Assembly (NCBI GenBank): GCA_965209025.1
Contig: OZ242375.1
Span: 258,302-322,301 of the forward strand
Length of the DNA stretch: 64,000 nt
Direction of reading: 5' to 3'
From: Acidimicrobiia bacterium
GTDB taxonomy: Bacteria > Actinomycetota > Acidimicrobiia > Spongiisociales > ZC4RG35
Shown: piece after piece, positions 23,928 to 56,377 of the stretch
Numbering within the stretch: the stretch's first letter is position 1
How the letters are laid out: each line of letters starts with the position of its first letter
Made by a program: the position numbers and the translations under genes
The notes under the pieces: model-generated
Seen by the model: only the letters and a program-made list of their open reading frames with translations
Databases searched by the model: none
Told to the model about the DNA's origin: nothing

Positions 23928-24700
23928 CGGCTTTGGGAATAGACATAGGAGGATCGGGAGTCAAAGGCAATCTGGTGGACACCGCCACCGGAGCGCTCCT
24001 GTCCGAACGCTTTCGCATACCCACTCCCCGCTCGGGGTCCACCGAGGCGGTGGGCGAGGTGGTGGCGGAGATAGCCGAGCACTTCCGGCAAGAGAGCGGG
24101 CATGAAACCCTCCCGGTGGGGTGCGGGTTTCCCGGGGTGATCAGATCGGGCGTCGTAAGCGCCGCCACCCACCTGGACAAGGCCTGGCTGGGCGCCGACG
24201 TGGTCGCCATTCTCTCCGGGGCGGTCGGGAGCCCGGTCACCGTTCTCAACGATGCGGATGCGGCCGGGGTGGCCGAGATCACCTTCGGGTCGGCCAAGGA
24301 TCGGAGCGGCACGATCCTGATGATCACCCTCGGCACCGGGATAGGGAGCGGGATGTTCCGGGACGGCCGGCTGGTCCCCAATTTCGAACTGGGCATGCTG
24401 GAACTGGGCGGTCATCACCCCATCGAGGACCGGGTGGCCTACCGCGTATTCAAGCAGGGGGAGTTGAGTTGGAAGAAGTGGGCCAGACGGTTGAACCGCT
24501 ACCTACGGCATGTCAACGCGCTCTTCGCTCCGGACCTGATAGTTCTCGGGGGAGGAGGGGTGAACAAGTGGTCCCGCTTCGGCCACCGCCTGGATGTGCC
24601 GGTGGATGTGGCCCCCGCCCACTTCGGGAACCATGCCGGCATCGTCGGCGCCGCCCTGGCCGCGGTGAACCCGGGCGCCCTGATGGGGGATCCCGCCTAA
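23924..24700 (+). CDS. ppgK: ROK-family / polyphosphate glucokinase
   Basis: MTALGIDIGGSGVK sugar-kinase N-terminus and ROK-like core. GTG overlaps the rarA stop. Confidence 0.75.
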   Translation: MTALGIDIGGSGVKGNLVDTATGALLSERFRIPTPRSGSTEAVGEVVAEIAEHFRQESGHETLPVGCGFPGVIRSGVVSAATHLDKAWLGADVVAILSGAVGSPVTVLNDADAAGVAEITFGSAKDRSGTILMITLGTGIGSGMFRDGRLVPNFELGMLELGGHHPIEDRVAYRVFKQGELSWKKWARRLNRYLRHVNALFAPDLIVLGGGGVNKWSRFGHRLDVPVDVAPAHFGNHAGIVGAALAAVNPGALMGDPA

Positions 24701-24858
24701 GAGGACCTGGCCCGGTGTGGGTAGGGCTGGCGTACCAGTCATCACGTCCTTGTCCGTTTGGATCACCGGTTCTGAAACACTTTGGATACGGGTCTCCCCA
24801 CCACTCCAGAGGCTTTGGTTGGTCTCCGGGGTCGGTGCTGGGGTTCCGATCCGTGTGT

Positions 24859-25962
24859 TTAGCTGCTGTGGATGGGGGTGGGTAGGGTTTGGTCACCGCA
24901 GTACAGGGTTTGGTCACCGCGGTACGGGGATTGGGGTGGTTCGTTTGTCCAGTATTGGGCCGATGATCCTTTGGGGTAGTCCGCTCCGGGAATGGGTGGT
25001 GGTAACACGGTGGAGTTCTCCGAGCCATCGTAGACCGCACCTACCGCCTTGTAGTAGGTGCGGAGTTCATTGGCGTCGGTGACCAGCAACGGCAGTTTGC
25101 CTATCCCGATCCTCCCTCCGGTGACCGCGGTGCGGTTCTCTGCCGCCGCGCGTACTTGCTGTTCCAACTCGGCGAGGGGCATATTCAACCGGGCACGCGC
25201 TTCCGGAGTCCGAGCCAACCGTATGTTCTGGGAGACAGCTTTGGGTGGGTTGTCATCAGTTTTCTGCACAAACCACACGGCCAGTTCCAACTCGGTGGCC
25301 CAGGCTTCCACGGTGAGAGTGGGGATTCCAAGAAACAGTACGAGTTCTTTTCCTGCGTAGACTTCCTCGGCTCTGCTGGCCGGGAAATTCAACGTGTTGT
25401 CCACCCATGCATCCTCGCCTCCCTGCTGTTCTATAAAGCATTCCCGATACCCTCCATCGGTGGAAAGAAGTAACGACCGGCGATGTAGCGACGCGGTGAG
25501 GACCGGGGGTCCTTCTCCCACCAGATACTCATTTACCCTGACCTCCGCAAAACAATGCACATGCACGTGAGGCCTAGCAATTGAGTGGACACTCTCGCTT
25601 GTAAAGTTCGGCGGTTTGGCCTGGTAGTCGTCACACCGGAACGTGTCCGGTCGCACCGTTCCTCGGATAACTATATGCGGCATCAGTAGAGGTGATGTAA
25701 GATGCACCGGGCCCCATCCCCCTAGTAGTAGTTCGTTGGGGGTTGGCAGAGGATCCGGGAGACGTTCAGACAATTTCAACGAACTATCCGGTTCCCCTGG
25801 TTCGCAGGGATCTATGTCGCTTCCATCGATAGGAACACAGGGAGGGATCACTTGCTCAAGATGTGATTTCAATGTGGGTGTAGCAGCCGAAAACCAACAA
25901 CCGATTAGCCCCACAGCCAAGACCAGTCCCAGGGTTGCCAGTGTTGTTTTGGTTCTGGTCAT
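24859..25962 (-). CDS. Island paralog 1: secreted (possibly lipo-) protein of an unassigned family, 367 aa
   Basis: Signal peptide MTRTKTTLATLGLVLAVGLIGC. Shares with paralogs 2-4 the conserved blocks IPPC.P..G...DPC, VHCF..VRVNEYL.G.GPP, LFLGIPTLTVEAW and LPLLVTDAN.L..YY.AVGAVYD. C-terminus carries a YRGDQTL/YCGDQTL 7-aa tandem repeat. Confidence 0.7.
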   Translation of the reverse strand: MTRTKTTLATLGLVLAVGLIGCWFSAATPTLKSHLEQVIPPCVPIDGSDIDPCEPGEPDSSLKLSERLPDPLPTPNELLLGGWGPVHLTSPLLMPHIVIRGTVRPDTFRCDDYQAKPPNFTSESVHSIARPHVHVHCFAEVRVNEYLVGEGPPVLTASLHRRSLLLSTDGGYRECFIEQQGGEDAWVDNTLNFPASRAEEVYAGKELVLFLGIPTLTVEAWATELELAVWFVQKTDDNPPKAVSQNIRLARTPEARARLNMPLAELEQQVRAAAENRTAVTGGRIGIGKLPLLVTDANELRTYYKAVGAVYDGSENSTVLPPPIPGADYPKGSSAQYWTNEPPQSPYRGDQTLYCGDQTLPTPIHSS

Positions 25963-26095
25963 TCTGGTTCTCTTTGGCTTTGGATGGTCTCCTAGGTTCA
26001 GGGGTCTAGGGGTTCCGAGCCGGGTGGTTGGTCGTCGGCTCCGGGTATGGGTGGTGGTTTGGCGGGTGTTAGGGTGGGGTCGTCGTAGACAGCAT
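25921..26095. repeat. Paralog junction cassette, copy 1 (tail-coding, stop, about 40-nt spacer, start, signal-peptide coding)
   Basis: The tctggttctctttg(g/c)ctttggatggtctcc(t/a/g)aggttc(a/g)gg block and flanking sequence recur at the 5' ends of paralogs 1 and 3 and of the fragment. Confidence 0.6.
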
Positions 26096-26189
26096 CCGTT
26101 GGTGGTGAGTTAGCGGGCGCGGTGCCGCAGCTTTGCCCGACAGCAAGGACCAGTCCCAGAGTCACCAGTGTGGTTTTGGTTCTGGTCAT
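25998..26189 (-). pseudogene. Internally deleted remnant of a family member: signal peptide fused directly to the Pro-rich C-terminal tail (63 aa)
   Basis: The N-terminus MTRTKTTLVTLGLVLAVGQSCGTAPANSPPTDAV is near-identical to the paralog 3 N-terminus. It is followed immediately by YDDPTLTPAKPPPIPGADDQPPGSEP, which matches the paralog C-terminal tails. The whole core is missing. Confidence 0.55.
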
Positions 26190-26330
26190 TCTGGTTCTCT
26201 TTGCCTTTGGATGGTCTCCAAGGTTCGGGCGTTTAGGGGTTACGAGCCGGGTGGTTGGTCGTCTTCACCGGGGGTGGGTGGGGTTCCGTTCGGGGTTTCG
26301 TTTTCTCCGGTGTTGGCGGGCGGGCCGGGG
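26131..26330. repeat. Paralog junction cassette, copy 2
   Basis: Near-identical to 25921-26095 and 28655-28960 by eye. Confidence 0.6.
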
Positions 26331-27475
26331 AGTTGATCGGCACCAGGGACCGGTGGGGGTAGGACGGTGGAGTTTTCCGAACCGTCGTAGACCGCTCCGA
26401 CCGCTCCATAAAAGTCCCGCAGTTTGTTGGCGTCGGTTACCAGCATCGGAAGATCAGATGCCATCCCGATCCGCCCTCCGGTGACGGCAACACGGTTAGT
26501 GGCTGCCGCTTTCACTTGTCGTTCTAGTTCTGCCAATGTCAGGTTCATCCGGGCACGCTGCTCAGAAGTACGCGCCAGCCTTATGTTCCGTTCAACAACT
26601 CTCGGCGGGTTATTACCAGTTTGCTGCACAAACCACACGGCCATTAGCAACTCCGTCTCCCATGCTTCCACAGTGAGCGTGGGGATTCCAAGAAACAGCA
26701 CAAGTTCTTTACCTTCGTAAACCGCGCCTGTTCGGCGAGCAGGAAAGTCGAGGGCATTGTCCACCCATTGGTCCTCGCCCCCGTGCAGAGCTATAAACGA
26801 ATCACGATAGCCTCCATCAGTGGGAAGGTGTACTATTTCCCGGTGCAGCGACACAGTCAATTCTGGAGGTCCTGTCCCTACCAGATACTCGCTTACACGG
26901 ATTTGAGCGAAACAATGAACATGGACGATTAAGTCATGATATGGATGCAGTTCGGCAGCGTAGCTCGCGACCTTTAGTGGATAGTCTTCGCATCTGGTTG
27001 TACCAGGTTGCGGTGTGCCTCTGATGACTACGTGCGGCAGCAACAACGGGTCCGCAGTGCCTTGGGGACTCCACTTTCCTAATAGCAGGTCAGCCATGGT
27101 TGGCAGTGGGTCTGGCAGACCCTCAGAGGAGCCTTCCGCGGCGGCTTTCCGGACTCTGGTCGGTTCTCCAGGAACGCAGGGATCAGCGTCGCTGCCGTCT
27201 ATGGGTGTGCAGGGGGGAATGACTTCTTCCAGATATGCAGGAGGTGTTTCTTCTCGAGCCTGACCTGCCGTCACGTCTCTATAAGTATTGGCATCTTGCG
27301 TTCGCGCAGTTGTGGCTGTTGGTTCTTGAAGTGTGGTTACAGGGGTGGGAACGGTTACGTCGGGTTGGTCCGTGGTAGGTCCTGTTCCTGTAGCGGTTGT
27401 TTTGCAGGCTTGGATAAAAACCAGTGTTGCCAATAGCCACGGCAACGCTCTCCTCTTAGTTGTTGCACCTTTCAT
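26240..27475 (-). CDS. Island paralog 2: secreted protein of the same family, about 411 aa
   Basis: Start chosen at ATG 27475 (AGGAAG SD with 6-nt spacer). ATG 27493 is the alternative. Signal peptide ...LPWLLATLVFIQAC, Thr/Pro linker, conserved family blocks. Pro-rich tail PPPVPGADQLPGPPANTGENETPNGTPPTPGEDDQPPGS. Confidence 0.7.
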   Translation of the reverse strand: MKGATTKRRALPWLLATLVFIQACKTTATGTGPTTDQPDVTVPTPVTTLQEPTATTARTQDANTYRDVTAGQAREETPPAYLEEVIPPCTPIDGSDADPCVPGEPTRVRKAAAEGSSEGLPDPLPTMADLLLGKWSPQGTADPLLLPHVVIRGTPQPGTTRCEDYPLKVASYAAELHPYHDLIVHVHCFAQIRVSEYLVGTGPPELTVSLHREIVHLPTDGGYRDSFIALHGGEDQWVDNALDFPARRTGAVYEGKELVLFLGIPTLTVEAWETELLMAVWFVQQTGNNPPRVVERNIRLARTSEQRARMNLTLAELERQVKAAATNRVAVTGGRIGMASDLPMLVTDANKLRDFYGAVGAVYDGSENSTVLPPPVPGADQLPGPPANTGENETPNGTPPTPGEDDQPPGS

Positions 27476-27568
27476 GGCATTCTTCCTTGTCATCCGTTTA
27501 TCCGCAATGGATGAATCTTGGGCTCTACCTTCCCATGGGGTTCGAGGAGGCCGAAGGATGGCGGTGTG

Positions 27569-28723
27569 TCAGGGTGTGGGAGGAGGTGTTTGGTCATCGT
27601 CTCCGGGCACAGGGGGTTGGTTGTCATCTCCGGGGGTGGGTGGGGTTCCGTTCGGGGTCTCTTCTTCGCCGGTGTTGGCTGGTGGTTCTTCGGGGTCTTC
27701 TGCTCCGGGTACGGGTGGTGGTTTGGCGGGTGTTTGGGCGGGGTCGTCGTAGACGGCGCCGATGGCTCCGTAGTAGGTACTGAGCTGGTTGGCGTCGGTG
27801 ATGAGCAGGGGCAGGTTGGGGTCGGTTCCGACCCGTCCGCCGGTGTTCGCCTTTCGGGTGGCGTCCGCTTGGGTGATCTTGGTTCGGAAGTCGGTTAAGG
27901 AGAAGTCCAATAGTGCTAGGTTTTCGGGTGTCTGGGGGTATTCGTGTTTGTCGGGGGCGATCACCCTTATTACACCGCCTACTTGCTGCACATCCCAGAA
28001 AAACGTCATTTCCCAAGCTTCCATCCGAACGCTGAAGCCAGCGGAGAGGAACAGGACTCCTTCGACACCTTCGTATGTGTCGATGACCTGTTCGTCCAGG
28101 GGCTGGGAGTGTCCAGGATTCGACGGCCAATTCAAACCTGTGATGACGCTCAGTTGGGGAGGTCCTGTTCCCAGCAGGTATTCGTTCACCCGCACATCGG
28201 AGAAACAAAAGAGATATTCCCATCCTGCAAAAGCCTTTCGGATGCGTTCCTCCAAATACGTTGGCAGCGTTGTGGCGTGGATCTCACACCTGGTTGTGTC
28301 TGGCAGTACAGTGCCACGGATAAGAATGTGCGTGGAGCTAGTAGCTACCAGGTCCCAGTAGTTCAAGACTTCGTGGAGTGGGGGAGCGTGAACCTTTGTT
28401 TCTTCTGATAGCATTACACCGTCAGCGGGTTCGATGGAGGGTGGTGGTCCGGTTGCGCATGGGTCTCGGTTGGTTCCGGCCACCGGGGTGCACGGAGGAA
28501 TCGTTTCCTCCAGGTATGTGAGATTCGCCTCTTCTAGTGCAGGTGCGGTAGTTGTAGGGGTAGCCGTGGTAGTTGTGGTTGACCGTGGCTCTTTAGAGGG
28601 ACTGTGAGTGGTGGTTGTGACAACAGCATCCGTTGGTGGTGAGTTAGCGGGCGCGGTGCCGCAGCTTTGTCCGACAACAAGGACCAGTCCCAGAGTCACC
28701 AGTGTGGTTCTTGTTCTGGTCAT
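27569..28723 (-). CDS. Island paralog 3: secreted protein of the same family, about 384 aa
   Basis: Start at ATG 28723 (MTRTRTTLVTLGLVLVVGQSCG). The ORF-track start at 28825 would overlap the paralog 4 tail. Thr-rich linker, conserved blocks, Pro-rich tail. Confidence 0.7.
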   Translation of the reverse strand: MTRTRTTLVTLGLVLVVGQSCGTAPANSPPTDAVVTTTTHSPSKEPRSTTTTTATPTTTAPALEEANLTYLEETIPPCTPVAGTNRDPCATGPPPSIEPADGVMLSEETKVHAPPLHEVLNYWDLVATSSTHILIRGTVLPDTTRCEIHATTLPTYLEERIRKAFAGWEYLFCFSDVRVNEYLLGTGPPQLSVITGLNWPSNPGHSQPLDEQVIDTYEGVEGVLFLSAGFSVRMEAWEMTFFWDVQQVGGVIRVIAPDKHEYPQTPENLALLDFSLTDFRTKITQADATRKANTGGRVGTDPNLPLLITDANQLSTYYGAIGAVYDDPAQTPAKPPPVPGAEDPEEPPANTGEEETPNGTPPTPGDDNQPPVPGDDDQTPPPTP

Positions 28724-28960
28724 TCTGGTTCTCTTTGCCTTTGGATGGTCTCCGAGGTTCGGGCGTTTAGGGTTCCGAGCCGGGTGGTTCATCATCGTCA
28801 CCGGGGACGGGTGGGGTTTGATCATCGCCGGGGGTGGGTGGGGTTCCGTTCGGAGTCTCGTTTTCGCCGGTGTTGGCGGGTGGGTTTTCGGGGTCTTCGG
28901 CTCCGGGGACTGGTGGTGGTTTGGCGGGTGTTTGGGTGGGGTCGTCGTAGACGGCGCCGA
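28655..28960. repeat. Paralog junction cassette, copy 3 (paralog 4 tail / paralog 3 start)
   Basis: Same conserved block. The Pro-rich tail coding sequence of paralog 3 (27590-27760) is also shared. Confidence 0.6.
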
Positions 28961-29939
28961 TGGCTCCGTAGTGGGTACTGAGTTTGTTGGCGTCGGTGAT
29001 CAGCAGGGGCAGGTTTGGGTCGGTGCCGACCCGCCCTCCGGTGTTCGCCGTTCGGGTGGCTGCTGCTTGGGTGATCTTGGTCCGGAAGTCTTCAAGGGTG
29101 TTGTCCAACAGTGCAAGGTTCTCTGTTGTTTGGGGGTATTCGTGTTTGTCGGGAGCGATCACCCTTGTTACACCGCCGACTTGCTGCACGTCCCAGAAGT
29201 ACACCATTTCCCAGGCTTCAAGTTGAAGGTTGAAACCCGTGGAGAGAAAGAGGATCCCTTCGACGCCCTCGTATGTGTCGATGACCTGTTCGTCCAGAGG
29301 CGGCCCCAGACGGTACTCAGGACCCAGCGGCCGATCCCAATTCGTAATCACGCTCAGTTGGGGAGGTCCTGTTCCCAGCAGGTACTCGTTTACCCGCACA
29401 TCGGAGAAACAATAGAGATGCTCCCATCCGGCAAAACGCTTTCGGTCAAAATCATCCCAATACGTTGGCAGAGTTAAGAGGAAGATCTGACACCTGGTCG
29501 TGTCTGGCAGTACAGTGCCCCGCAGAACTATATGAACCGACCTAGCAGGATCCCTGTCTCTGTAATTCAAGACTTCGTGGAGTGGGGGAGCGTAAACCTT
29601 TGCTGCTTCTGATATCATTACACCATCATCGGGCTCGATGGAGGGTGGTGTTCCGGCAGCGCAGGGGTCTCGGTTTGTTCCGGCTACCGGGGTGCATGGA
29701 GGAATCGTTTCCTCTAGATATGCAGCGTTCGCTTCCTCTTTTGCGACCCTTGACGGAGTTGCGGTTGTTGTAGGCGCAGCCGTGATGGTTGTGGTTGGCC
29801 GCAACTCTAATGAAGGGTTGTGAGTGGTGGTCGTGACAACAGCATCCGTTGGCGGTGAGTTAGCGGGTGCGGTGCCGCAGGCTTGCGCGATGACCCATAC
29901 CAAACTTGTGACAACTAGCAGGGTTTTGGGGGTGTTCAT
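28767..29939 (-). CDS. Island paralog 4: secreted protein of the same family, about 390 aa
   Basis: Start at ATG 29939 (MNTPKTLLVVTSLVWVIAQAC, with an AXA-type cleavage site), AAGGA 8 nt upstream, 29 nt after the giant gene's stop. About 80% identical to paralog 3. Confidence 0.7.
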   Translation of the reverse strand: MNTPKTLLVVTSLVWVIAQACGTAPANSPPTDAVVTTTTHNPSLELRPTTTITAAPTTTATPSRVAKEEANAAYLEETIPPCTPVAGTNRDPCAAGTPPSIEPDDGVMISEAAKVYAPPLHEVLNYRDRDPARSVHIVLRGTVLPDTTRCQIFLLTLPTYWDDFDRKRFAGWEHLYCFSDVRVNEYLLGTGPPQLSVITNWDRPLGPEYRLGPPLDEQVIDTYEGVEGILFLSTGFNLQLEAWEMVYFWDVQQVGGVTRVIAPDKHEYPQTTENLALLDNTLEDFRTKITQAAATRTANTGGRVGTDPNLPLLITDANKLSTHYGAIGAVYDDPTQTPAKPPPVPGAEDPENPPANTGENETPNGTPPTPGDDQTPPVPGDDDEPPGSEP

Positions 29940-29968
29940 CTTCTTTGTCCTTTCGTTCTCCCCTGGTG

Positions 29969-32900
29969 TTATGGTGTGTTGTCTGATTGGTAGAGTGCTT
30001 TGAGGGCGACGATGTCCATCGGTTGTGGTGCACATATGCGATTCGTTGTAGGGGCGGTGTCAGTTTTCTTTCTCATGATGCTTTCGTTGGGGTTTGTCGT
30101 GGCGTGTCCCAGACCCCAGATGTGACCCGCTTCGTGAGTGGCAACTTCGAGGCGCAGAGAGCAGTTGTTTCCTCCTGCCCATGTGGCATCCGTGGGTCCT
30201 TTCACGAAAAACATGGCGTATTTGGTGTATCCGCTTACATTGGGATCGAACGGCGGTACGACAGCTAATGCTGTGTCCGAGAGTTTCGGGTAGTACACCT
30301 TTACCTGTGTGCTGGTTTGGAGTGAGACTCTTCTGGTGTCTTCTTCAAGGCAGTTGTCGCCGGATTCTTGGGTGATTACGGATGAGCTGATGTTTCGGCC
30401 GTCTGGTGTGGTGAAGCCTTGCATGGCTGTGGTCCATTTGGTGAATCCTTGTTTGATTTCGTTGATCCATGTTTGGGTCATATCTTTTGTGCATATTTTG
30501 TAGGCGTAGTGGAGGGGTGACAGATCGTGACGGTAGGGTATCCCGGCTACGCTAAACCCGCCGCTGGTTGATGGTTCCTCCGCAGTTGTAAAAACGAGAA
30601 TGGTTTCGCTGGACCAGGGCGATTGGTCTGCTGCGTTGCCGGATCGCACTTGGACGGCGTAAAGGCGGCTGATCCGCAGCCCGGTGATCGCATAAGATGT
30701 GCTGGTGATCTTGTCGGATACCGGGGTCCAGGTGCCGCTGCAGGTCGGGGGATCGGCGCACGTTTTGTATCGGACCTTGTAGTACTCGGCGGTGGTGGCC
30801 GGAGCGTCGGTGGTGGACACGGGGTTCCATGTCATCTTGATCTGGGCTTCGTCGGGTCGTAGATGAACGTGTGCGGTTGGGCTGTGTCCGTTGGCGCGTA
30901 GTCCTGTGGGCGTGGGTGGAGCGCCTGTGACTGTCCAGGTGGTGACGGGTTCGGACCATTGGGATTGGTGGTGTTGGTAGCCGGTGGTGGTGTCGTTGGC
31001 GCGGATGTGGATCCGGTAGTTTCGGCCGATGGTGAGGGTGCTGTGGGTTCCGGTGTTTTTGACTATTTTGACCGTGAACACTCCTTGGGAGTCGGGTGCG
31101 ATTTCCAGTTGGTTTGTGCCGGTGCAGTCGTTCCCGGTGCCGTCTCCTACGCAGTAGGCCTGTTGGGTGGTTACCGTGTCGGGGCAGTCGCTGCCTGTTT
31201 CGACGCAGTATGTGATGTCGTAGCCTTGTGCGTGGGCTACTTGGTTCCATTTGATGTTCAACGCGGGGGTTTGTGGGTGGGCCAGGTTGAACCCGTCGGC
31301 GACTACTCCGGTGGGTTTTGCCAGTAGTAGGGATGTTTCGATGGTGTGGGATCCGAGGTTGGTGGTGGTGGTGCTGGTGCGGCTGATCTCGATCCGGTAG
31401 TCAACGGATCCGGTGGTGAGCCCGGGTGGGTTCCATTCGACGAGGTTGCCGTGCACGGTGGAGGTTTGGGAGGCAAGGTCGGTGGTGGTTCCGACGGTTC
31501 CTGCTGTTATTTCTGCCCAGGTGAGGACGAACGGCACGCTTGAGGAGACCTCGAGTTTGATCTTGTCGGGTGTTACGTCTCTAAGGGTGTATCGCTTGGC
31601 GTAGACGGTTTCGGTGGTGCTGGTGCGATGGACGGCCTTGCAGTCGGTGGTCCAGTCGTGTCTGGTGGTTGTTTGTGGCAGGTCCGTGGTGCAGGCGTCT
31701 GTGGAGGGCGGAACAGTGGTCGTAGTAGTAGTGGTGGTGGTGGTCGTAGTGGTGGTGGTGGTGGAGCGGGTGGTTTGTTTGGTGACGGTTCGTTCGCAGG
31801 TGGGCGGGTTGGTGGTTTTGTTCAGGGTGTATTCGGTTGGGCAGGACCAAACGGGATCGATTGTGGTCGGTCGGGTGGTTTGTTTGGTTACGGTCCTTTT
31901 GCAGGTGGGTGGATCGGTGGTTTCGTCCAAGGTGTAGCCGGTTCCGCAGGACCATTGGGTTTCGGTTGTGGTCGGTTGGGTGGTTTCTCGGGTTACTGGG
32001 CGGGAGCAGGTGGGCGAGAGCCCGGATTCGCCTTCCACACCACCTCCGCTGGCTCCTGATTGGGGACCGATGCCTTTTTGGTATCCGGGCGGGCAGGAAT
32101 AGGTTGTTTGGATGGTGGCGTTGCGCGTGGTTTCTCGGGTGATTGTGCGGGAGCAGGTGGGTGAGAGACCCGATTCACCCTCGACGCCGCCGCTGTTGCC
32201 GGTGGGTCCTGTTTGGCCGCCGATGCCTTTTTGGTATCCGGGGGGACAGGAGAAGGTGGTTTGGGTGGTGGCGTTGCGCGTGGTTTCTCGGGTGATTGTG
32301 CGGGAGCACGTGGGCGAGAGCCCGGATTCGCCTTGGGCGCCACCGTCGCCGCTGCTGCCGGTGGGTCCTGTTTGGCTGCCGAGGCCTTTTTGGTATCCGG
32401 GGGGACAGGTCCAGTCTGTCCGTGATGAAGCGTTGCGGGTGGTGTCGCGAGTGATGGTGCGGGAGCAGGTGGGTGAGAGCCCGGATTCGCCTTCCACGCC
32501 GCCGTCGTCGTTGTTGTTTCCGCTGCTGCCGCCGGCTTGTGATTGGCCGCCGAGGCCTTTTTGGTATCCGTCGGGGCAGGTGAAAGTTGTCCGGATTGAA
32601 GCGGTAAGAGTGGTGGAACCCGACCGCCTGTAAGAACAGATGGACTCGTTTCGGCTGCTGTACGAGTAAGTGGCCGGTGCCGACGGGCACGAATACGATG
32701 TGGTGGCGGTGCGGGTGGTGCTGGTCGACCGCGTGTAAGTACAAGTAGTTCCGCTGCGGCTGCTGTACGTATAGGTGGCCGGCGCCGACGGGCACGAATA
32801 CGATGTGGTGGCGGTGCGGGTGGTGCTGGTCGACCGCGTGTAAGTACAAGTAGTTCCGCTGCGGCTGCTGTACGAATAGGTGGAAGGCGCCGACGGGCAG

Positions 32901-34471
32901 GAGTAGAGGGTGGTGGCGGTGCGGGTGGTGCTGGTCGATCGGGTGTAGGTGCAGGTGGTGCCGCTGCGGCTGCTGTACGAATAGGTGGAAGGCGCCGACG
33001 GGCACGAATATGACGTTCGGGCGGTGCGGGTGGTGGAACCCGACCGCGTGTAATAACACGTCGACCCGACCCGATGACTATACGAAAACGTAGAAGGAGC
33101 ACCGGGGCAGTTATACCCCGCAGTGGGGTGTGCCACAGCCCTGCGGGTAGTGGTCGTGGATCGGGTGTACGTACAGGTGGTGCCGTTTCGGCTGCTGTAG
33201 GAGTAGGTAGATGGCGCCGACGGGCACGAATATGAGGTGGTGGCGGTGCGGGTGGTGGAACCCGACCGCGTGTAATAACAGGTGGAACCACTCCTCCTGC
33301 TATAGGTGAAGGTCCCCAACGAACCGGGACACGAATACGACGTGTTAGCGGTGCGGGTAGTGGAACTCGACCGCGTGTACGTACAAGTGGACCCGCTCCG
33401 GCTGCTGTACGAATACGTAGAAGGAGCAGAGGGGCACGAGTAGGAGGTGTTGGCGGTGCGGGTGGTGGACCCCGACCTCGTGTACGTGCAAGTGGACCCG
33501 CTTCGGCTGCTGTACGAGAACGTGGAAGGCGCAGAAGGGCACGAATACGATGTGGTGGCGGTGCGGGTGGTGCTGGTCGACCGGGTGTAAGTGCAGGTTC
33601 TGCCGCTCCTGCTGCTGTAGGTGTAGGTGGCGGGCGCAGCCGGACACGTGTACACCGTCGTCCCGGTGGCGTCGATCGTCTCGGTGTCCTCATACGTGTA
33701 ATGACAGACAGACCCGTCTCGTCGGACGAACGCCAATCCGTCCTCGGTCGGACACGTGTACACCGTCGTTCCGGTGGCGTCGATCGTCTCGGTGTCCTCG
33801 TAGGTGTAGTGACAGACAGACCCGTCTCGTCGGACGAACGTCAGTCCGTCCTCGGTGGGACAGGTGTACACGGTGGTGCCGGTGGCGTCGATCGTTTCGG
33901 TGTCCTCGTAGGTGTAGTGGCAGACAGACCCGTCCCGCCGAACAAATGTCAGGGTGGCTTCGGTCGGACACGAGTAGGTCGTGGTTCCGGTGGCGTCGAT
34001 GGTTTCTGTGTCCTCGTAGGTGTAGTGGCAGACAGACCCGTCTCGTCGGACGAACGTGTACCCCGCAGGCGACGGACACTCCTCAACGGTCGACGAAGTC
34101 GCTGCTGTGCTTTCGACGCTCTCGTAGGTGTAATGACACGTTGACCCGTCCTTCCGGACCAGCGTGTACCCCGCAGGCGACGGGCACACCTCTTCGGTCG
34201 TGCCCGTGTCAGTAGCAGGTACGCTCTCAACCTCCTCGTAGGTGTAATGACACGTCGAACCGTCCCGCCGGACAAACGTCAGCCCCTCCGGCATCGGGCA
34301 GGCACCGTTGGAACCAGCCTCCAAACTGACCCACCCATTGTCCTCCAGTCCCATCCCGCCGACCGCCAACGGCACAACCGACAACAAAGCCCCCAACGCC
34401 ACAACGGCCACCAGTCCCGACCTTCCCCTCCTCGACCTTCCCCCCCTCGCTCTCCGGTAGGGACTGGCCAT
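29969..34471 (-). CDS. Giant secreted multi-repeat protein (1500 aa) with C-terminal metzincin-type zinc metalloprotease domain
   Basis: ATG 34471 is preceded by AGGAGG with a 5-nt spacer. Arg-rich signal peptide. Three families of Cys-containing tandem repeats, a run of about 17 Thr, beta-rich modules, and HEAGHIWGLGH (encoded at 30104-30136, minus strand) followed by a SIM Met-turn. Confidence 0.85.
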   Translation of the reverse strand: MASPYRRARGGRSRRGRSGLVAVVALGALLSVVPLAVGGMGLEDNGWVSLEAGSNGACPMPEGLTFVRRDGSTCHYTYEEVESVPATDTGTTEEVCPSPAGYTLVRKDGSTCHYTYESVESTAATSSTVEECPSPAGYTFVRRDGSVCHYTYEDTETIDATGTTTYSCPTEATLTFVRRDGSVCHYTYEDTETIDATGTTVYTCPTEDGLTFVRRDGSVCHYTYEDTETIDATGTTVYTCPTEDGLAFVRRDGSVCHYTYEDTETIDATGTTVYTCPAAPATYTYSSRSGRTCTYTRSTSTTRTATTSYSCPSAPSTFSYSSRSGSTCTYTRSGSTTRTANTSYSCPSAPSTYSYSSRSGSTCTYTRSSSTTRTANTSYSCPGSLGTFTYSRRSGSTCYYTRSGSTTRTATTSYSCPSAPSTYSYSSRNGTTCTYTRSTTTTRRAVAHPTAGYNCPGAPSTFSYSHRVGSTCYYTRSGSTTRTARTSYSCPSAPSTYSYSSRSGTTCTYTRSTSTTRTATTLYSCPSAPSTYSYSSRSGTTCTYTRSTSTTRTATTSYSCPSAPATYTYSSRSGTTCTYTRSTSTTRTATTSYSCPSAPATYSYSSRNESICSYRRSGSTTLTASIRTTFTCPDGYQKGLGGQSQAGGSSGNNNDDGGVEGESGLSPTCSRTITRDTTRNASSRTDWTCPPGYQKGLGSQTGPTGSSGDGGAQGESGLSPTCSRTITRETTRNATTQTTFSCPPGYQKGIGGQTGPTGNSGGVEGESGLSPTCSRTITRETTRNATIQTTYSCPPGYQKGIGPQSGASGGGVEGESGLSPTCSRPVTRETTQPTTTETQWSCGTGYTLDETTDPPTCKRTVTKQTTRPTTIDPVWSCPTEYTLNKTTNPPTCERTVTKQTTRSTTTTTTTTTTTTTTTTVPPSTDACTTDLPQTTTRHDWTTDCKAVHRTSTTETVYAKRYTLRDVTPDKIKLEVSSSVPFVLTWAEITAGTVGTTTDLASQTSTVHGNLVEWNPPGLTTGSVDYRIEISRTSTTTTNLGSHTIETSLLLAKPTGVVADGFNLAHPQTPALNIKWNQVAHAQGYDITYCVETGSDCPDTVTTQQAYCVGDGTGNDCTGTNQLEIAPDSQGVFTVKIVKNTGTHSTLTIGRNYRIHIRANDTTTGYQHHQSQWSEPVTTWTVTGAPPTPTGLRANGHSPTAHVHLRPDEAQIKMTWNPVSTTDAPATTAEYYKVRYKTCADPPTCSGTWTPVSDKITSTSYAITGLRISRLYAVQVRSGNAADQSPWSSETILVFTTAEEPSTSGGFSVAGIPYRHDLSPLHYAYKICTKDMTQTWINEIKQGFTKWTTAMQGFTTPDGRNISSSVITQESGDNCLEEDTRRVSLQTSTQVKVYYPKLSDTALAVVPPFDPNVSGYTKYAMFFVKGPTDATWAGGNNCSLRLEVATHEAGHIWGLGHATTNPNESIMRKKTDTAPTTNRICAPQPMDIVALKALYQSDNTP
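31990..32600. repeat. Intragenic tandem repeat family C (about 156 nt / 52 aa, 4 copies)
   Basis: Protein unit: CPPGYQKGIGGQTGPTGNSGGVEGESGLSPTCSRTITRETTRNATIQTTYS. DNA copies are more than 90% identical. Confidence 0.75.
32600..33640. repeat. Intragenic tandem repeat family B (about 105 nt / 35 aa, roughly 10 copies)
   Basis: Protein unit: SYSCPSAPSTYSYSSRSGTTCTYTRSTSTTRTATT. Near-identical DNA copies (the ggtggcggtgcgggtggtgctggtcgaccgcgtgtaagtacaagtagttcc block recurs). Confidence 0.8.
33640..34300. repeat. Intragenic tandem repeat family A (about 108 nt / 36 aa, roughly 8 copies)
   Basis: Protein unit: CPTEDGLTFVRRDGSVCHYTYEDTETIDATGTTVYT. Several copies are nucleotide-identical. Confidence 0.8.
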
Positions 34472-53651: not shown

Positions 53652-53744
53652 CAGTCTCCACAGCGACCGGCGGGGCCGCCGGCAGGGAGAGGGCGCCGAG
53701 AATGGAGCCTCTTTTCGTTTACATTCCGTTAAGAAAGGGGGTAT

Positions 53745-53760
53745 CATCTCCAGCGTTCAT
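53745..53760. promoter_or_regulatory. Perfect inverted repeat GTTCA-N6-TGAAC, 47 nt upstream of the liv substrate-binding protein gene
   Basis: Reads gcGTTCAttgaagTGAACaa, inside an AT-rich leader. Confidence 0.3.
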
Positions 53761-53806
53761 TGAAGTGAACAACTTACAGAATTCCTTCGGAACAGAGGAG
53801 AGAAAC

Positions 53807-56377
53807 ATGCTCCGCTTACCAACAACTACAAGGGCTAGGGGACTGCTCAAGTTCCTGGTCGTGCTCTCTTGCGCAGCGCTTGTCCTTTCGGCTTGCGGCG
53901 ACGACGAGACCGAAGAACCGACCGCCACCGCGGCTCCGACCACTGCCGCCCCGGATGAACCTACGGAGGAGATGCCCATGATGGACCATCTCGGAGATGG
54001 TTCGTTGGGTGTTGTGGAGGTGGAGCCGGGTGAGGCTGTCCAGATCCGTTCGTTGAACGCGATCACGGGTGATGTGGCCTTCTTCGGCCTGCCGATCGAG
54101 CGGTCCGTGGTTTTGGCGATCGCCGACTACGGGCAGATTCATGGTTTTGATGTGGATATGGGTACCGGCTTGGATGACCTGTGTTCCAATGATGGGGGTC
54201 AGGCTGCGGCTCAGATCATCGTTGCCGACGAGGATGTGATCGGTGTGATCGGGACTTCGTGTTCCGGGGCGGCCACGGCTGCGGCGCCGTTGATCACCGA
54301 TGCTGGGATGGTGCTGATCTCGGGTGGTAACACCTCGCCTGCGCTTACTTCGGACCTGGCTGGTACGGCTGGAGCGAACTACAGCTACGGGTATTACCGG
54401 ACGGCTCATAACGACCTGTTCCAGGGTCGGGTGATGGCTGAGTTCGTGTTCAACGAACTGGGCATCTCCACTGCGGCTGCTATTCACGACGGAGACCCCT
54501 ATACGCAGGGTTTGGCGAAGGCTTTCACCGATGCGTTTGACGCGTTGGGTGGTGATGTGACCGGTTTCTCGGCTGTGAACAAGGAGGACACCGACATGGT
54601 GCCGGTGCTCACCGAGATCGCGGCGGGGAGTCCCGGGGCATTGTTCTTCCCGATCTTCCAGCCCGCCGGCGACTTCGTAGCCGAACAGGCCCCCGGTGTC
54701 TCCGGCTTGGAGAACACGGTGCTGTTGGCGGCTGATGGTTTGTTGAATACCTCGTATCTGGCTTTGTCGCAGACCGAGGGGATGTACTTCTCGGGTCCGG
54801 ACACCCGGTTCGGTCAGAACGTCAACGCCAGCACCGGTAAGACGGCCCAGGATTTCCTGGCTGCCTACGAAGGGGATTACGGCGAGGCGCCTGCCGCGCC
54901 TTTCTGGGCTCACGGCTATGACGCCACCACCTTGCTGCTCGACGCCATCACCGCCGCCTCCTACGTTTCCGAGGACGGCTCGTTGATGGTTGACCGCCAG
55001 GGAGTCCGCGAGTATCTCGACAACGTAAGGGACTACCAGGGTCTGATCGGCTTGATCAGTTGCGATGACTTCGGTGACTGCGGTTCGCAGTTGATCACCG
55101 TGGTCTACCACCAGAGCGCCGACAATCCGGAAGCCACCATGGGCAATGTCGTCTACTCCGGAGGCGGAAGCGGAGAGGGGACGATGGAGCCCCTCGGCGA
55201 CGGTTCTTTGGGCACCGTTACCGTGGAGCCCGGTGAGGCTGTCCAAATCCGTTCGCTGAACGCGATCACCGGTGATGTGGCCTTCTTCGGCCTGCCGATC
55301 GAGCGGTCCGTGGTGCTGGCCATCTCCGACTACGGGCAGATCCACGGTTTCGATGTCGATATGGGTACCGGCTTGGATGACCTGTGTTCCAATGATGGGG
55401 GTCAGGCTGCTGCTCAGATCATCGTTGCCGATGAGGATGTGATCGGTGTGATCGGGACTTCGTGCTCGGGTGCGGCCACGGCTGCGGCGCCGTTGATCAC
55501 CGATGCGGGTATGGTGCTGATCTCGGGTGGTAACACCTCGCCTGCGTTGACTTCGGACCTGGCCGGGACGGCGGGAGCGAACTACAGCTACGGCTATTAC
55601 CGGACGGCTCATAACGATCTGTTCCAGGGTCGGGTGATGGCGGAGTTCGTCTTCAACGAACTGGGTATCTCCTCTGCGGCTGCCATTCATGACGGCGATC
55701 CTTATACGCAGGGTCTGGCGAAGGCTTTCACCGATGCGTTCGACGCGTTGGGTGGTGATGTGACTGGTTTCTCGGCTGTGAACAAGGAGGACACCGACAT
55801 GGTGCCGGTCCTCACCGAGATCGCGGCGGGGAGTCCGGGTGCGTTGTTCTTCCCGATCTTCCAGCCCGCCGGCGACTTCATCGCTGAGCAGGCGCCAGGG
55901 GTTTCGGGCTTGGAGAGCACGGTGCTGTTGGCGGCTGATGGTTTGCTGAACACCTCGTATCTGGCTTTGTCGCAGACTGAAGGCATGTACTTCTCGGGTC
56001 CGGACACGCGGTTCGGCGAGAATGTCAACGCCAGTACCGGGAAGTCGGCCCAGGATTTCCTGGCTGCTTACGAGCGCGACTACGGTGAACCGCCTGCGGC
56101 GCCTTTCTGGGCGCATGGCTATGACGCCACCACGATGCTGCTGGACGCCATCGCCGCGGCTTCGCACCTCGCTGACGACGGTTCCTTGATAGTCGACCGG
56201 CAGGGAGTGCGTGCTTTCTTGGACGGCGTCCGCAACTATCAGGGTCTGATCGGGCTGATCAGCTGTGATGACTTCGGTGACTGCGGTTCGCAGTTGATCA
56301 CCGTGGTCCACCACCAGAGCGCCGACAACCCGGAGGCGAGCATGGGCAATGTCGTCTACTCCGGCGGAGGCAACTGA
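53807..56377 (+). CDS. Branched-chain amino-acid ABC transporter substrate-binding lipoprotein, tandem double-domain (two LivJ/LivK-like modules fused in frame)
   Basis: ATG 53807 with GGAGAG SD. Lipobox LSAC. Two type-I periplasmic-binding-protein modules, each about 390 aa, with DNA more than 90% identical by eye, joined by an SGEGT linker. Confidence 0.8.
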   Translation: MLRLPTTTRARGLLKFLVVLSCAALVLSACGDDETEEPTATAAPTTAAPDEPTEEMPMMDHLGDGSLGVVEVEPGEAVQIRSLNAITGDVAFFGLPIERSVVLAIADYGQIHGFDVDMGTGLDDLCSNDGGQAAAQIIVADEDVIGVIGTSCSGAATAAAPLITDAGMVLISGGNTSPALTSDLAGTAGANYSYGYYRTAHNDLFQGRVMAEFVFNELGISTAAAIHDGDPYTQGLAKAFTDAFDALGGDVTGFSAVNKEDTDMVPVLTEIAAGSPGALFFPIFQPAGDFVAEQAPGVSGLENTVLLAADGLLNTSYLALSQTEGMYFSGPDTRFGQNVNASTGKTAQDFLAAYEGDYGEAPAAPFWAHGYDATTLLLDAITAASYVSEDGSLMVDRQGVREYLDNVRDYQGLIGLISCDDFGDCGSQLITVVYHQSADNPEATMGNVVYSGGGSGEGTMEPLGDGSLGTVTVEPGEAVQIRSLNAITGDVAFFGLPIERSVVLAISDYGQIHGFDVDMGTGLDDLCSNDGGQAAAQIIVADEDVIGVIGTSCSGAATAAAPLITDAGMVLISGGNTSPALTSDLAGTAGANYSYGYYRTAHNDLFQGRVMAEFVFNELGISSAAAIHDGDPYTQGLAKAFTDAFDALGGDVTGFSAVNKEDTDMVPVLTEIAAGSPGALFFPIFQPAGDFIAEQAPGVSGLESTVLLAADGLLNTSYLALSQTEGMYFSGPDTRFGENVNASTGKSAQDFLAAYERDYGEPPAAPFWAHGYDATTMLLDAIAAASHLADDGSLIVDRQGVRAFLDGVRNYQGLIGLISCDDFGDCGSQLITVVHHQSADNPEASMGNVVYSGGGN
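53990..56370. repeat. About 1.18-kb in-frame tandem direct duplication (copy A about 53990-55170, copy B about 55190-56370)
   Basis: Long runs of identical sequence between the two halves of the SBP gene. Confidence 0.75.

Follow-up and report, generated by a model that had tools for sequence, protein, structure and literature searches.

An unannotated lipoprotein family encoded next to MMP-like metzincin domains in Acidimicrobiia and Dehalococcoidia

What might a tandem array of related exported proteins do when its genes lie directly downstream of a giant metalloprotease gene? This question is raised by a 64,000-nucleotide (nt) stretch of contig OZ242375.1 (positions 258,302 to 322,301, forward strand; GenBank assembly GCA_965209025.1) from an Acidimicrobiia bacterium, here called the window and numbered from its first letter. 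A preliminary description had noted four co-oriented paralogs of 367-411 amino acids (aa), starting 29 nt after the stop codon of the giant gene, and had regarded them either as a surface family of antigenic type with conserved ends around a diversifying core, or as cognates of the neighboring protease that serve it as substrates, inhibitors, or cargo. All four open reading frames (ORFs) are present and are designated P1 to P4, with P4 starting next to the protease gene. Here, we characterize this lipoprotein family and its neighborhood, and conclude that the family and a lineage of matrix metalloproteinase (MMP)-like metzincins are probably bound in a dedicated functional partnership of some kind. 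More specifically, we assign a probability of roughly 0.5 to a protease-binding, inhibitor-like, or latency role of the partner, which may go along with its cleavage and release, as known from a protein pair of Listeria.

Association of the lipoprotein family with a metzincin lineage

We built hidden Markov models (HMMs) of both the family and the catalytic domain and scanned every fetched locus with them, 18 distinct loci in all. In 12 of these, found in Acidimicrobiia and Dehalococcoidia, a family gene comes directly after the end of a homologous catalytic domain encoded on the same strand. Paired loci are the window, L001 (identical to L012), L002 (L009), L004 (L005/L006), L007, L008, L010, L011, L013, L014, L015, L022, and L023. 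Protease and partner genes overlap or are separated by 14-60 nt in most of these loci, and by 300 nt in L001. Giant proteins resembling that of the window are encoded upstream in L001, L002, L004/L006, and L010, and a homologous giant likewise in L015, a Dehalococcoidia locus composed of four alternating protease-partner pairs.

Apart from this adjacency, the identity matrix of the proteases correlates with that of their adjacent partners (Mantel r=0.775, 0 of 10,000 permutations; 11 catalytic domains). One genome holds two old pair lineages (L011 and L014), each of which has closer relatives in other genomes and has kept its own partner. The nearest relatives of the window protease and of P4 both reside in L014, at 57% and 68% identity, respectively. 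P1 and P2 are nearest to the partner in L007 (62%), the protease of which is only 25% identical to that of the window, and therefore appear to be orphans of a second pair lineage. L007, L008, L013, L022, and L023 combine a 5'-truncated or frameshifted protease with an intact family gene, as expected of protective partners. Mobile elements adjoin three of the cassettes: there are insertion sequence (IS) fragments on the flanks of L007 and IS21- and IS110-type genes on those of L002 and L004, with IS3 also among the IS genes at these three loci. L022 (4928-12184) contains three units, each consisting of a 130-aa ORF with the C-terminal half of the metzincin domain only (HEAGHAFGIGW...SIMSY...CEPQAYDVVALMANNQSR) and, within 3 nt, a family gene fused to LRR, fn3, and cadherin modules, a layout that recalls orphan toxin-tip/immunity arrays.

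The giant protein of the window (1500 aa; 29969-34471, minus strand, from ORF and translation) begins with a basic and hydrophobic N terminus of signal or anchor type. Some 25 Cys-pair repeats, each 35-53 aa long, come next; a stretch of Thr and fn3-like modules then lead to the MMP-like metzincin domain at the C terminus. This catalytic domain of ~200 aa (29972-30574, minus strand), recognized by the catalytic-domain HMM, phmmer against PDB, and hhalign, carries a HEAGHIWGLGH zinc site, a Met-turn (SIM), and a C-terminal C.PQP.DIVALKALYQS helix. The catalytic-domain HMM scores it at an E value of 2e-43, Pfam M10 matches it weakly (E value of 7e-4), and phmmer yielded weak matches to stromelysin-3 and matrilysin around the zinc site. 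The sequence ahead of it shows no recognizable prodomain or cysteine switch. A homologue search with this domain alone returned 0 matches, and a search with a 10-sequence catalytic-domain profile only 2, both truncated.

The Cys-pair repeats of the giant (window 30700-34300, minus strand, residues ~60-1250) have two Cys each, in the patterns CP..G.TFVRRDGS.CHYTYE and YSCPSAPSTYSYSSRSGSTCTYTRS, correspond to tandem DNA periods of 105, 108, and 153-159 nt, and are followed by a run of 16 Thr. They have no Pfam match. Repeats of this type (YSCP...RRxGSxCxY) recur in the giants of L001 and L002; those of L006 are of a different type. The repeats look like an uncharacterized stalk module.

In an alignment of the four paralogs, P3 and P4 are 77% and P1 and P2 61% identical, compared with earlier estimates of about 80% and 65%, whereas identity between the two pairs is 36-41%; every core motif block listed previously is present. 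With family HMM E values of 1e-123 to 1e-142 for each paralog, this similarity is far beyond chance. The preliminary description had called the proteins secreted and had proposed a common architecture of signal peptide and Thr/Pro linker. Signal peptides are indeed shared, but they end in a lipobox Cys (LIGC in P1, IQAC in P2, GQSC in P3, and AQAC in P4), so that the paralogs are of lipoprotein type and not plainly secreted, and P1 lacks the linker, having only ~12 residues from the lipobox Cys to the core. Ratios of nonsynonymous to synonymous substitution (dN/dS), determined by the Nei-Gojobori method, are 0.17 for P1/P2, 0.34 for P3/P4 (dS of 0.46), and 0.26-0.47 between the pairs, where dS is saturated. 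The highest value in any 60-codon window is 0.73, the OB-loop region of P3 versus P4 giving 0.6-0.73, and no window exceeds 1. The comparison of dN/dS between paralogs, which had been put forward as a check, shows that they are under purifying selection with some relaxation and that the core is not diversifying.

Predicted fold and resemblance to known systems

AlphaFold2 models computed on an 85-sequence alignment reached a mean predicted local distance difference test score (pLDDT) of 86.6 and a predicted template modeling score (pTM) of 0.83 for P1, and a pLDDT of 82.5 and a pTM of 0.73 for P4. The predicted models contain a five-stranded OB barrel with flanking helices, which is the NTR-type fold. 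Comparison to solved structures gave two figures for each: 7.6 and 6.4 for agrin NtA, 6.0 and 5.1 for the PCOLCE NTR domain, 6.0 and 4.9 for N-TIMP-3 (from the TACE complex), 5.2-6.0 and 4.5-5.5 for the C345C domains of C3/C4/C5, 5.4 and 4.5 for TIMP-1 (from the MMP-3 complex), and 4.1 and 4.2 for the meteorin NTR domain. In the models, ~100-130 core residues are thus predicted to form an OB barrel that is nearest to the NTR/TIMP subclass.

TIMP and NTR proteins have six conserved Cys forming three disulfides, and a free Cys-x-Cys N terminus that chelates the catalytic zinc; in contrast, the array family has four Cys and no such N terminus. Furthermore, its OB part is embedded in a fold of ~300 aa, its members are bacterial and lipid anchored, and sequence profiles reveal no similarity. 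Considering an hhalign probability of 0.2%, four instead of six conserved Cys, and the missing free N-terminal Cys, the family was not assigned to TIMP/NTR.

A similar gene arrangement has been described in Listeria monocytogenes, where the secreted metzincin Mtz is encoded directly upstream of Tim, a lipobox lipoprotein on the same strand without a promoter of its own (LMRG_00713/00714; Boichis et al. 2021, PMC8235301). Tim has a TIMP-like predicted fold without TIMP sequence similarity. Mtz cuts Tim ~50 residues from the N terminus, and the freed TIMP-like fragment sensitizes the cell wall (PMC8235301). We recovered Mtz-Tim itself from the record of a Listeria phage (L024), along with a Metabacillus pair (L026) annotated as "matrixin family metalloprotease" and "hypothetical protein." The catalytic profile aligned to Listeria Mtz (L024:334-894) with an hhalign probability of 94.5% and an E value of 8e-8 over 47 columns comprising the zinc site, Met-turn, and C-terminal helix; the N-terminal subdomain of the catalytic domain did not align.

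The two systems have in common a metzincin gene followed on the same strand by a lipobox lipoprotein gene, a partner that is TIMP-like in prediction but lacks TIMP sequence similarity, and a protease without prodomain, with detectable homology between the proteases at the zinc site, the Met-turn, and the C-terminal helix. Both are also associated with mobile DNA, in the array family through the IS next to L002, L004, and L007 and the GC dip over the window cassette. Nonetheless, there are considerable differences. Tim has 223 aa and lacks the four invariant Cys present in the ~300-aa array-family core, and Mtz is a 187-aa enzyme, whereas the array's protease is the tip of a 1500-aa repeat protein. 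One to four partners in arrays, double-domain partners, and LRR or cadherin fusions distinguish the array family from the Listeria pair. The hosts are Acidimicrobiia and Dehalococcoidia for the array family and Bacillota for Mtz-Tim, and the CI/Cro switch is absent from the array system.

Serralysin inhibitors, such as Pseudomonas AprI, Erwinia Inh, and Serratia SmaPI, are small cognate metzincin inhibitors encoded in the same operon as the protease and serve self-protection. They are soluble periplasmic eight-stranded barrels of ~100 aa that inhibit via a free N terminus, and are unrelated to the array family in sequence and fold; PMC8235301 cites these inhibitors as well. In Tannerella forsythia, potempins are surface lipoprotein inhibitors co-transcribed with, and specific for, the neighboring KLIKK peptidase, including the MMP-like karilysin; some have an OB fold, and their role is to shield the envelope of the cell that makes them (Ksiazek et al. 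2022, PMC9890683). Members of the array family do not conform to the potempin type, which is small (98-132 aa), has a single barrel, and is encoded immediately upstream of the peptidase. With a giant, repeat-rich surface protein that ends in an enzymatic tip and small partner genes immediately downstream, the array system also resembles polymorphic toxin/immunity cassettes, such as those of contact-dependent inhibition (CDI) and Rhs systems; the orphan partners (P1 and P2 in the window) and the truncated tip-plus-partner units (L022, L007, and L023) add to this likeness. However, the tips of the array system all belong to one protease family instead of being interchangeable toxins, and no delivery machinery, pre-toxin, or demarcating motif was seen. 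An antibacterial role of the array system is pure conjecture.

Organization of the array and distribution of the family

All genes of the array lie on the minus strand. P4 (28767-29939; 390 aa) comprises the AQAC lipobox, a Thr/Pro linker, a core of ~270 aa, and a Pro-rich acidic tail. P3 (27569-28723; 384 aa counted from MTRTRTT, with a longest ORF of 418 aa) is a recent duplicate of P4. The second lineage comprises P2 (26240-27475 or 27493; 411 or 417 aa), which equals the database protein P0001, and P1 (24859-25962; 367 aa), with the LIGC lipobox. The reported spacing of 40-95 nt was reproduced for P4-P3 (43 nt) and P3-P2 (75-93 nt) but not for P2-P1, which are 277 nt apart. This gap contains a remnant fifth copy in the form of a 63-aa mini-ORF (25998-26189, minus strand), in which a P3-type signal peptide, lipobox, and linker start are joined straight to the C-terminal tail and the entire core is gone. 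The same 5' untranslated region (...ggagaccatccaaag.caaagagaaccagaATGACCAGAACC) occurs twice, ahead of the remnant and ahead of P1. Moreover, the C-terminal tails of P2, P3, and P4 are almost identical, although the P2 core is only ~40% identical to those of P3 and P4. The remnant, the repeated 5' untranslated region, and these tails on divergent cores are signs of unequal crossover within the array. Recombination among array members appears to have produced the near-identical ends of P2, P3, and P4, and it is exactly these ends that are joined in the remnant.

GC content is 0.56-0.60 over the cassette (window 24000-34000), which also shows a strong negative AT skew, versus 0.65-0.67 in the flanks. 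Horizontal acquisition and the Thr/Pro-rich coding bias, singly or together, may lie behind this drop. The cassette is flanked by hflX/moaA on one side and by a ROK kinase gene on the other. A promoter and terminator scan gave no signal above chance. A second low-GC stretch of the window (54-56 kb) harbors a gene unrelated to the array family (53702-56377, plus strand), which is located upstream of branched-chain amino-acid ATP-binding cassette (ABC) permease genes. It encodes an 891-aa lipoprotein in which an internal duplication has given two LivK-type amino-acid-binding domains of nearly the same sequence.

The designation of the paralogs as an unassigned family proved justified. Neither Pfam nor NCBIfam matched any paralog, nor the core of any of 85 members at an E value of up to 10, and the family profile found no match among PDB sequences, TIMP included. 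A word-indexed search retrieved 92 unnamed relatives, and an exhaustive search of 1.84 billion representatives 953 clusters at E values of up to 1e-3, 521 of them at up to 1e-30. No description of the family was found in the literature searched, and with all members being unannotated hypothetical proteins, it merits a database entry as a domain of unknown function or new Pfam family.

Across 238 aligned domains, ~35 positions are conserved to at least 85%, and four Cys (C42, C53, C110, and C137 in P1 numbering) are invariant wherever the N terminus is present, probably forming two disulfides that hold the core. Invariant polar residues outside the OB part are H96, R109, E206, E219, R277, R284, D296, and N298 (P1 numbering). 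A lipobox-type signal was found by a strict pattern in at least 118 of 163 complete members, with most others qualifying by eye, and the linker between lipobox Cys and the conserved YLEExIPPC block has a median length of 28 aa. The IPPCTP sequence was considered as a sulfatase-type CxPxR motif and rejected because it lacks the Arg. After the core, 48 of 119 members, compared with 8% of shuffled tails, have the tail motif PPPxPG followed ~8 aa later by PxxTG[ED] (PANTGE, PTRTGE, or PITTGE), for example in P2 (26240-26330), P3 (27569-27690), and P4 (28767-28890; all minus strand), as well as in homologs. PxxTG[ED] resembles the LPxTG/LAxTG sortase signals, but no hydrophobic segment or basic tail follows, and this assignment was discarded.

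Up to four family domains occur in one protein. Polypeptides with two to four complete domains (L001 10001-12109, P0003; L002 14123-16186; and P0098) are fused tandem copies in place of separate genes. Distant members carry LRR, fn3, cadherin, or Big_9 modules after the family domain. The gene of one LRR/fn3-fused member, P0069, interrupts an Opp/Dpp-type operon for a peptide ABC transporter, lying between those of the permeases and those of the ATPases (L020 7501-13741, and L021), a position that hints at a link of the family to peptide uptake. In L016 (8253-10933), two tandem divergent members are bordered by glycolytic genes (pgk, tpi, and pgm-like) on one side and by cobalamin-related genes on the other, without a protease in the vicinity. 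The TGGRIG block is missing from both, and their role may differ from that of other members.

All 13 loci in a one-genome-per-species collection belong to metagenome-assembled genomes (MAGs) of Acidimicrobiia or Dehalococcoidia. Several of the Acidimicrobiia MAGs are named Ca. Spongiisocius or Ca. Spongiisociaceae, and based on these taxon names and background knowledge we take the organisms to be sponge associated. A scan of Joint Genome Institute (JGI) metagenomes with the patterns used yielded no family member, and neither did a tblastn search of the family core against phage genomes.

Possible role of the partner lipoproteins

As a class, the substrate, inhibitor, or cargo reading of the preliminary description is in line with the synteny, the co-divergence, the TIMP/NTR-like OB subdomain, and the identical layout of the Listeria pair, which do not single out one of its members. 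Within this class, we favor an inhibitor-like or latency role of the partner, because it combines an NTR/TIMP-type OB subdomain with a membrane tether and faces a protease without prodomain, and because the globular parts co-diverge, partners persist without an intact protease, and orphan partners exist. Purifying selection on all paralogs and the almost universal lipoprotein signals of the family also speak for this role. The conserved unit consists of the catalytic domain and, after a gap of 0-60 nt (300 nt in one locus) or an overlap, the family gene, both probably being made together from one transcript. At the cell surface, the partner may bind the catalytic domain; as long as its flexible linker holds it there, it would serve, in the manner of a TIMP or a potempin, to keep the prodomain-less protease latent and to protect the producing cell. 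The protease may also clip the linker and release the partner, as in the Mtz-Tim model. P4, together with its duplicate P3, would be the cognate partner of the giant's protease, and P1 and P2 would be orphan partners of another pair lineage, its protease being absent from the window, that were kept after recombination and perhaps guard against proteases of neighbors.

Several observations weigh against this role. As to the check proposed earlier, homologues do not always neighbor a metzincin gene: six of the 18 loci (L003, L016, L017, L018, L019, and L020/L021) have no protease within 10 kb; many distant members are, moreover, fused to LRR, fn3, or cadherin modules, so that the domain apparently can work without an adjacent protease. 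Four copies per protease exceed the needs of a simple inhibitor. Only ~100-130 of the ~300 core residues match the OB fold, the rest lack a solved counterpart, and the strongest motifs, TGGRIG and LP(M/L)LVTDAN, lie outside the OB part. A Foldseek search of the whole model against PDB returned nothing significant (best E value of 0.19), the profile of four TIMP N-domain sequences, which were checked against PDB, gave the 0.2% hhalign probability stated above, and none of the 85 members matched Pfam TIMP (PF00965) or NTR (PF01759) at an E value of up to 10. A TIMP-type free N-terminal Cys is absent, as the first conserved Cys lies inside YLEExIPPC, 12 to more than 60 residues after the lipidated Cys. 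The comparison with Listeria also cuts the other way. There, Tim is a substrate of Mtz, and inhibition of Mtz by Tim was never tested (PMC8235301). In hhalign, the family profile matched Tim at 12% in the signal peptide only, at 0.3% for mature Tim, and at 1.1% for a 3-sequence Tim profile, the Tim profiles being very thin. Short motifs occur in the same order in Tim and the family (IIIKAT/HIVIRGT, DVQIN/DVRVN, and GEEYTLFL/GKELVLFL), without statistical support.

If the strict Mtz-Tim model applied, the partner would be a pure substrate or cargo, inactive as long as it is anchored: the giant protease would cut the linker and shed a domain acting elsewhere, for example on the cell walls of neighbors or on the sponge matrix, and no inhibition would be involved. 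We regard this as possible, though somewhat unlikely as the sole function. Cleavage of Tim by Mtz does release the TIMP-like fragment that carries the phenotype, the family has a flexible linker and several paralogs per protease, and the tail motif PPPxPG...PxxTG[ED] could be a processing or recognition site. Yet P1 is almost devoid of a linker, family genes persist beside truncated or frameshifted proteases, and co-divergence of the globular cores with the catalytic domain is not required by a cleavage site in a linker. The two models are not exclusive, and inhibition and shedding can hold together. Doubtful, in our view, is that the family represents an independent surface adhesin or host-interaction module of sponge symbionts, a eukaryote-like protein binding a host or matrix ligand, next to a protease merely because both belong to a surface or symbiosis island. 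Such a module would suit the LRR and cadherin fusions and the protease-less loci, but it leaves the co-divergence with the protease unaccounted for, and the adjacency is too tight and too widespread, with the same order in two phyla and duplicated units kept even in the LRR-fused L022 members.

We consider it improbable that the lipoproteins are maturation factors, that is, extracytoplasmic foldases, chaperones, or modifying or activating enzymes for the Cys-rich catalytic domain after export. Tight gene coupling and the invariant polar residues outside the OB part would be compatible with this, as would the lipoprotein location, which is typical of Gram-positive foldases such as PrsA; however, there is no similarity to enzyme or chaperone families in Pfam, NCBIfam, or PDB, all four Cys are probably engaged in disulfides, and orphan copies and adhesin-type fusions are difficult to explain by such an activity. 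The proposal that the paralogs form a surface family under antigenic variation, in which conserved ends enclose a diversifying core, fares worst and appears very improbable. The tandem array with its shared ends and signs of unequal crossover and the elevated dN/dS in the P3/P4 OB loop fit this proposal, but overall ratios of 0.17-0.47 without any window above 1 do not, and in the 238 domains the conserved motifs sit in the core, the variable parts being the low-complexity linker and tail.

Returning to the inhibitor-like role, it is tempting, if speculative, to go one step further and imagine a widespread, hitherto unrecognized protease/TIMP-like system specific to sponge symbionts, in which the lipoproteins are true NTR-fold metzincin inhibitors that confer immunity against the stalk-mounted proteases of rival symbionts, orphan copies guarding against those of neighbors, or are shed as inhibitors of host matrix metalloproteases. 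We deem this unlikely as it stands; if the lipoproteins were true inhibitors, however, bacteria would possess an NTR/TIMP-type control of MMP-like enzymes that is either independent of or ancestral to the metazoan TIMP-MMP system.

Listeria Mtz-Tim is so far the one described case of a bacterial metzincin paired with a TIMP-like lipoprotein, and its mechanism is unsettled. The same gene logic recurs here in a much larger unnamed family of ~950 clusters, in two unrelated phyla, and in combination with giant stalked proteases, arrays, double domains, and adhesin fusions. Should the partners bind the protease or inhibit it, they would offer a handle on how symbionts dwelling in animal matrix control an MMP-like enzyme at their surface, a new scaffold for metzincin inhibition, and a data point on whether the TIMP/NTR solution arose more than once.

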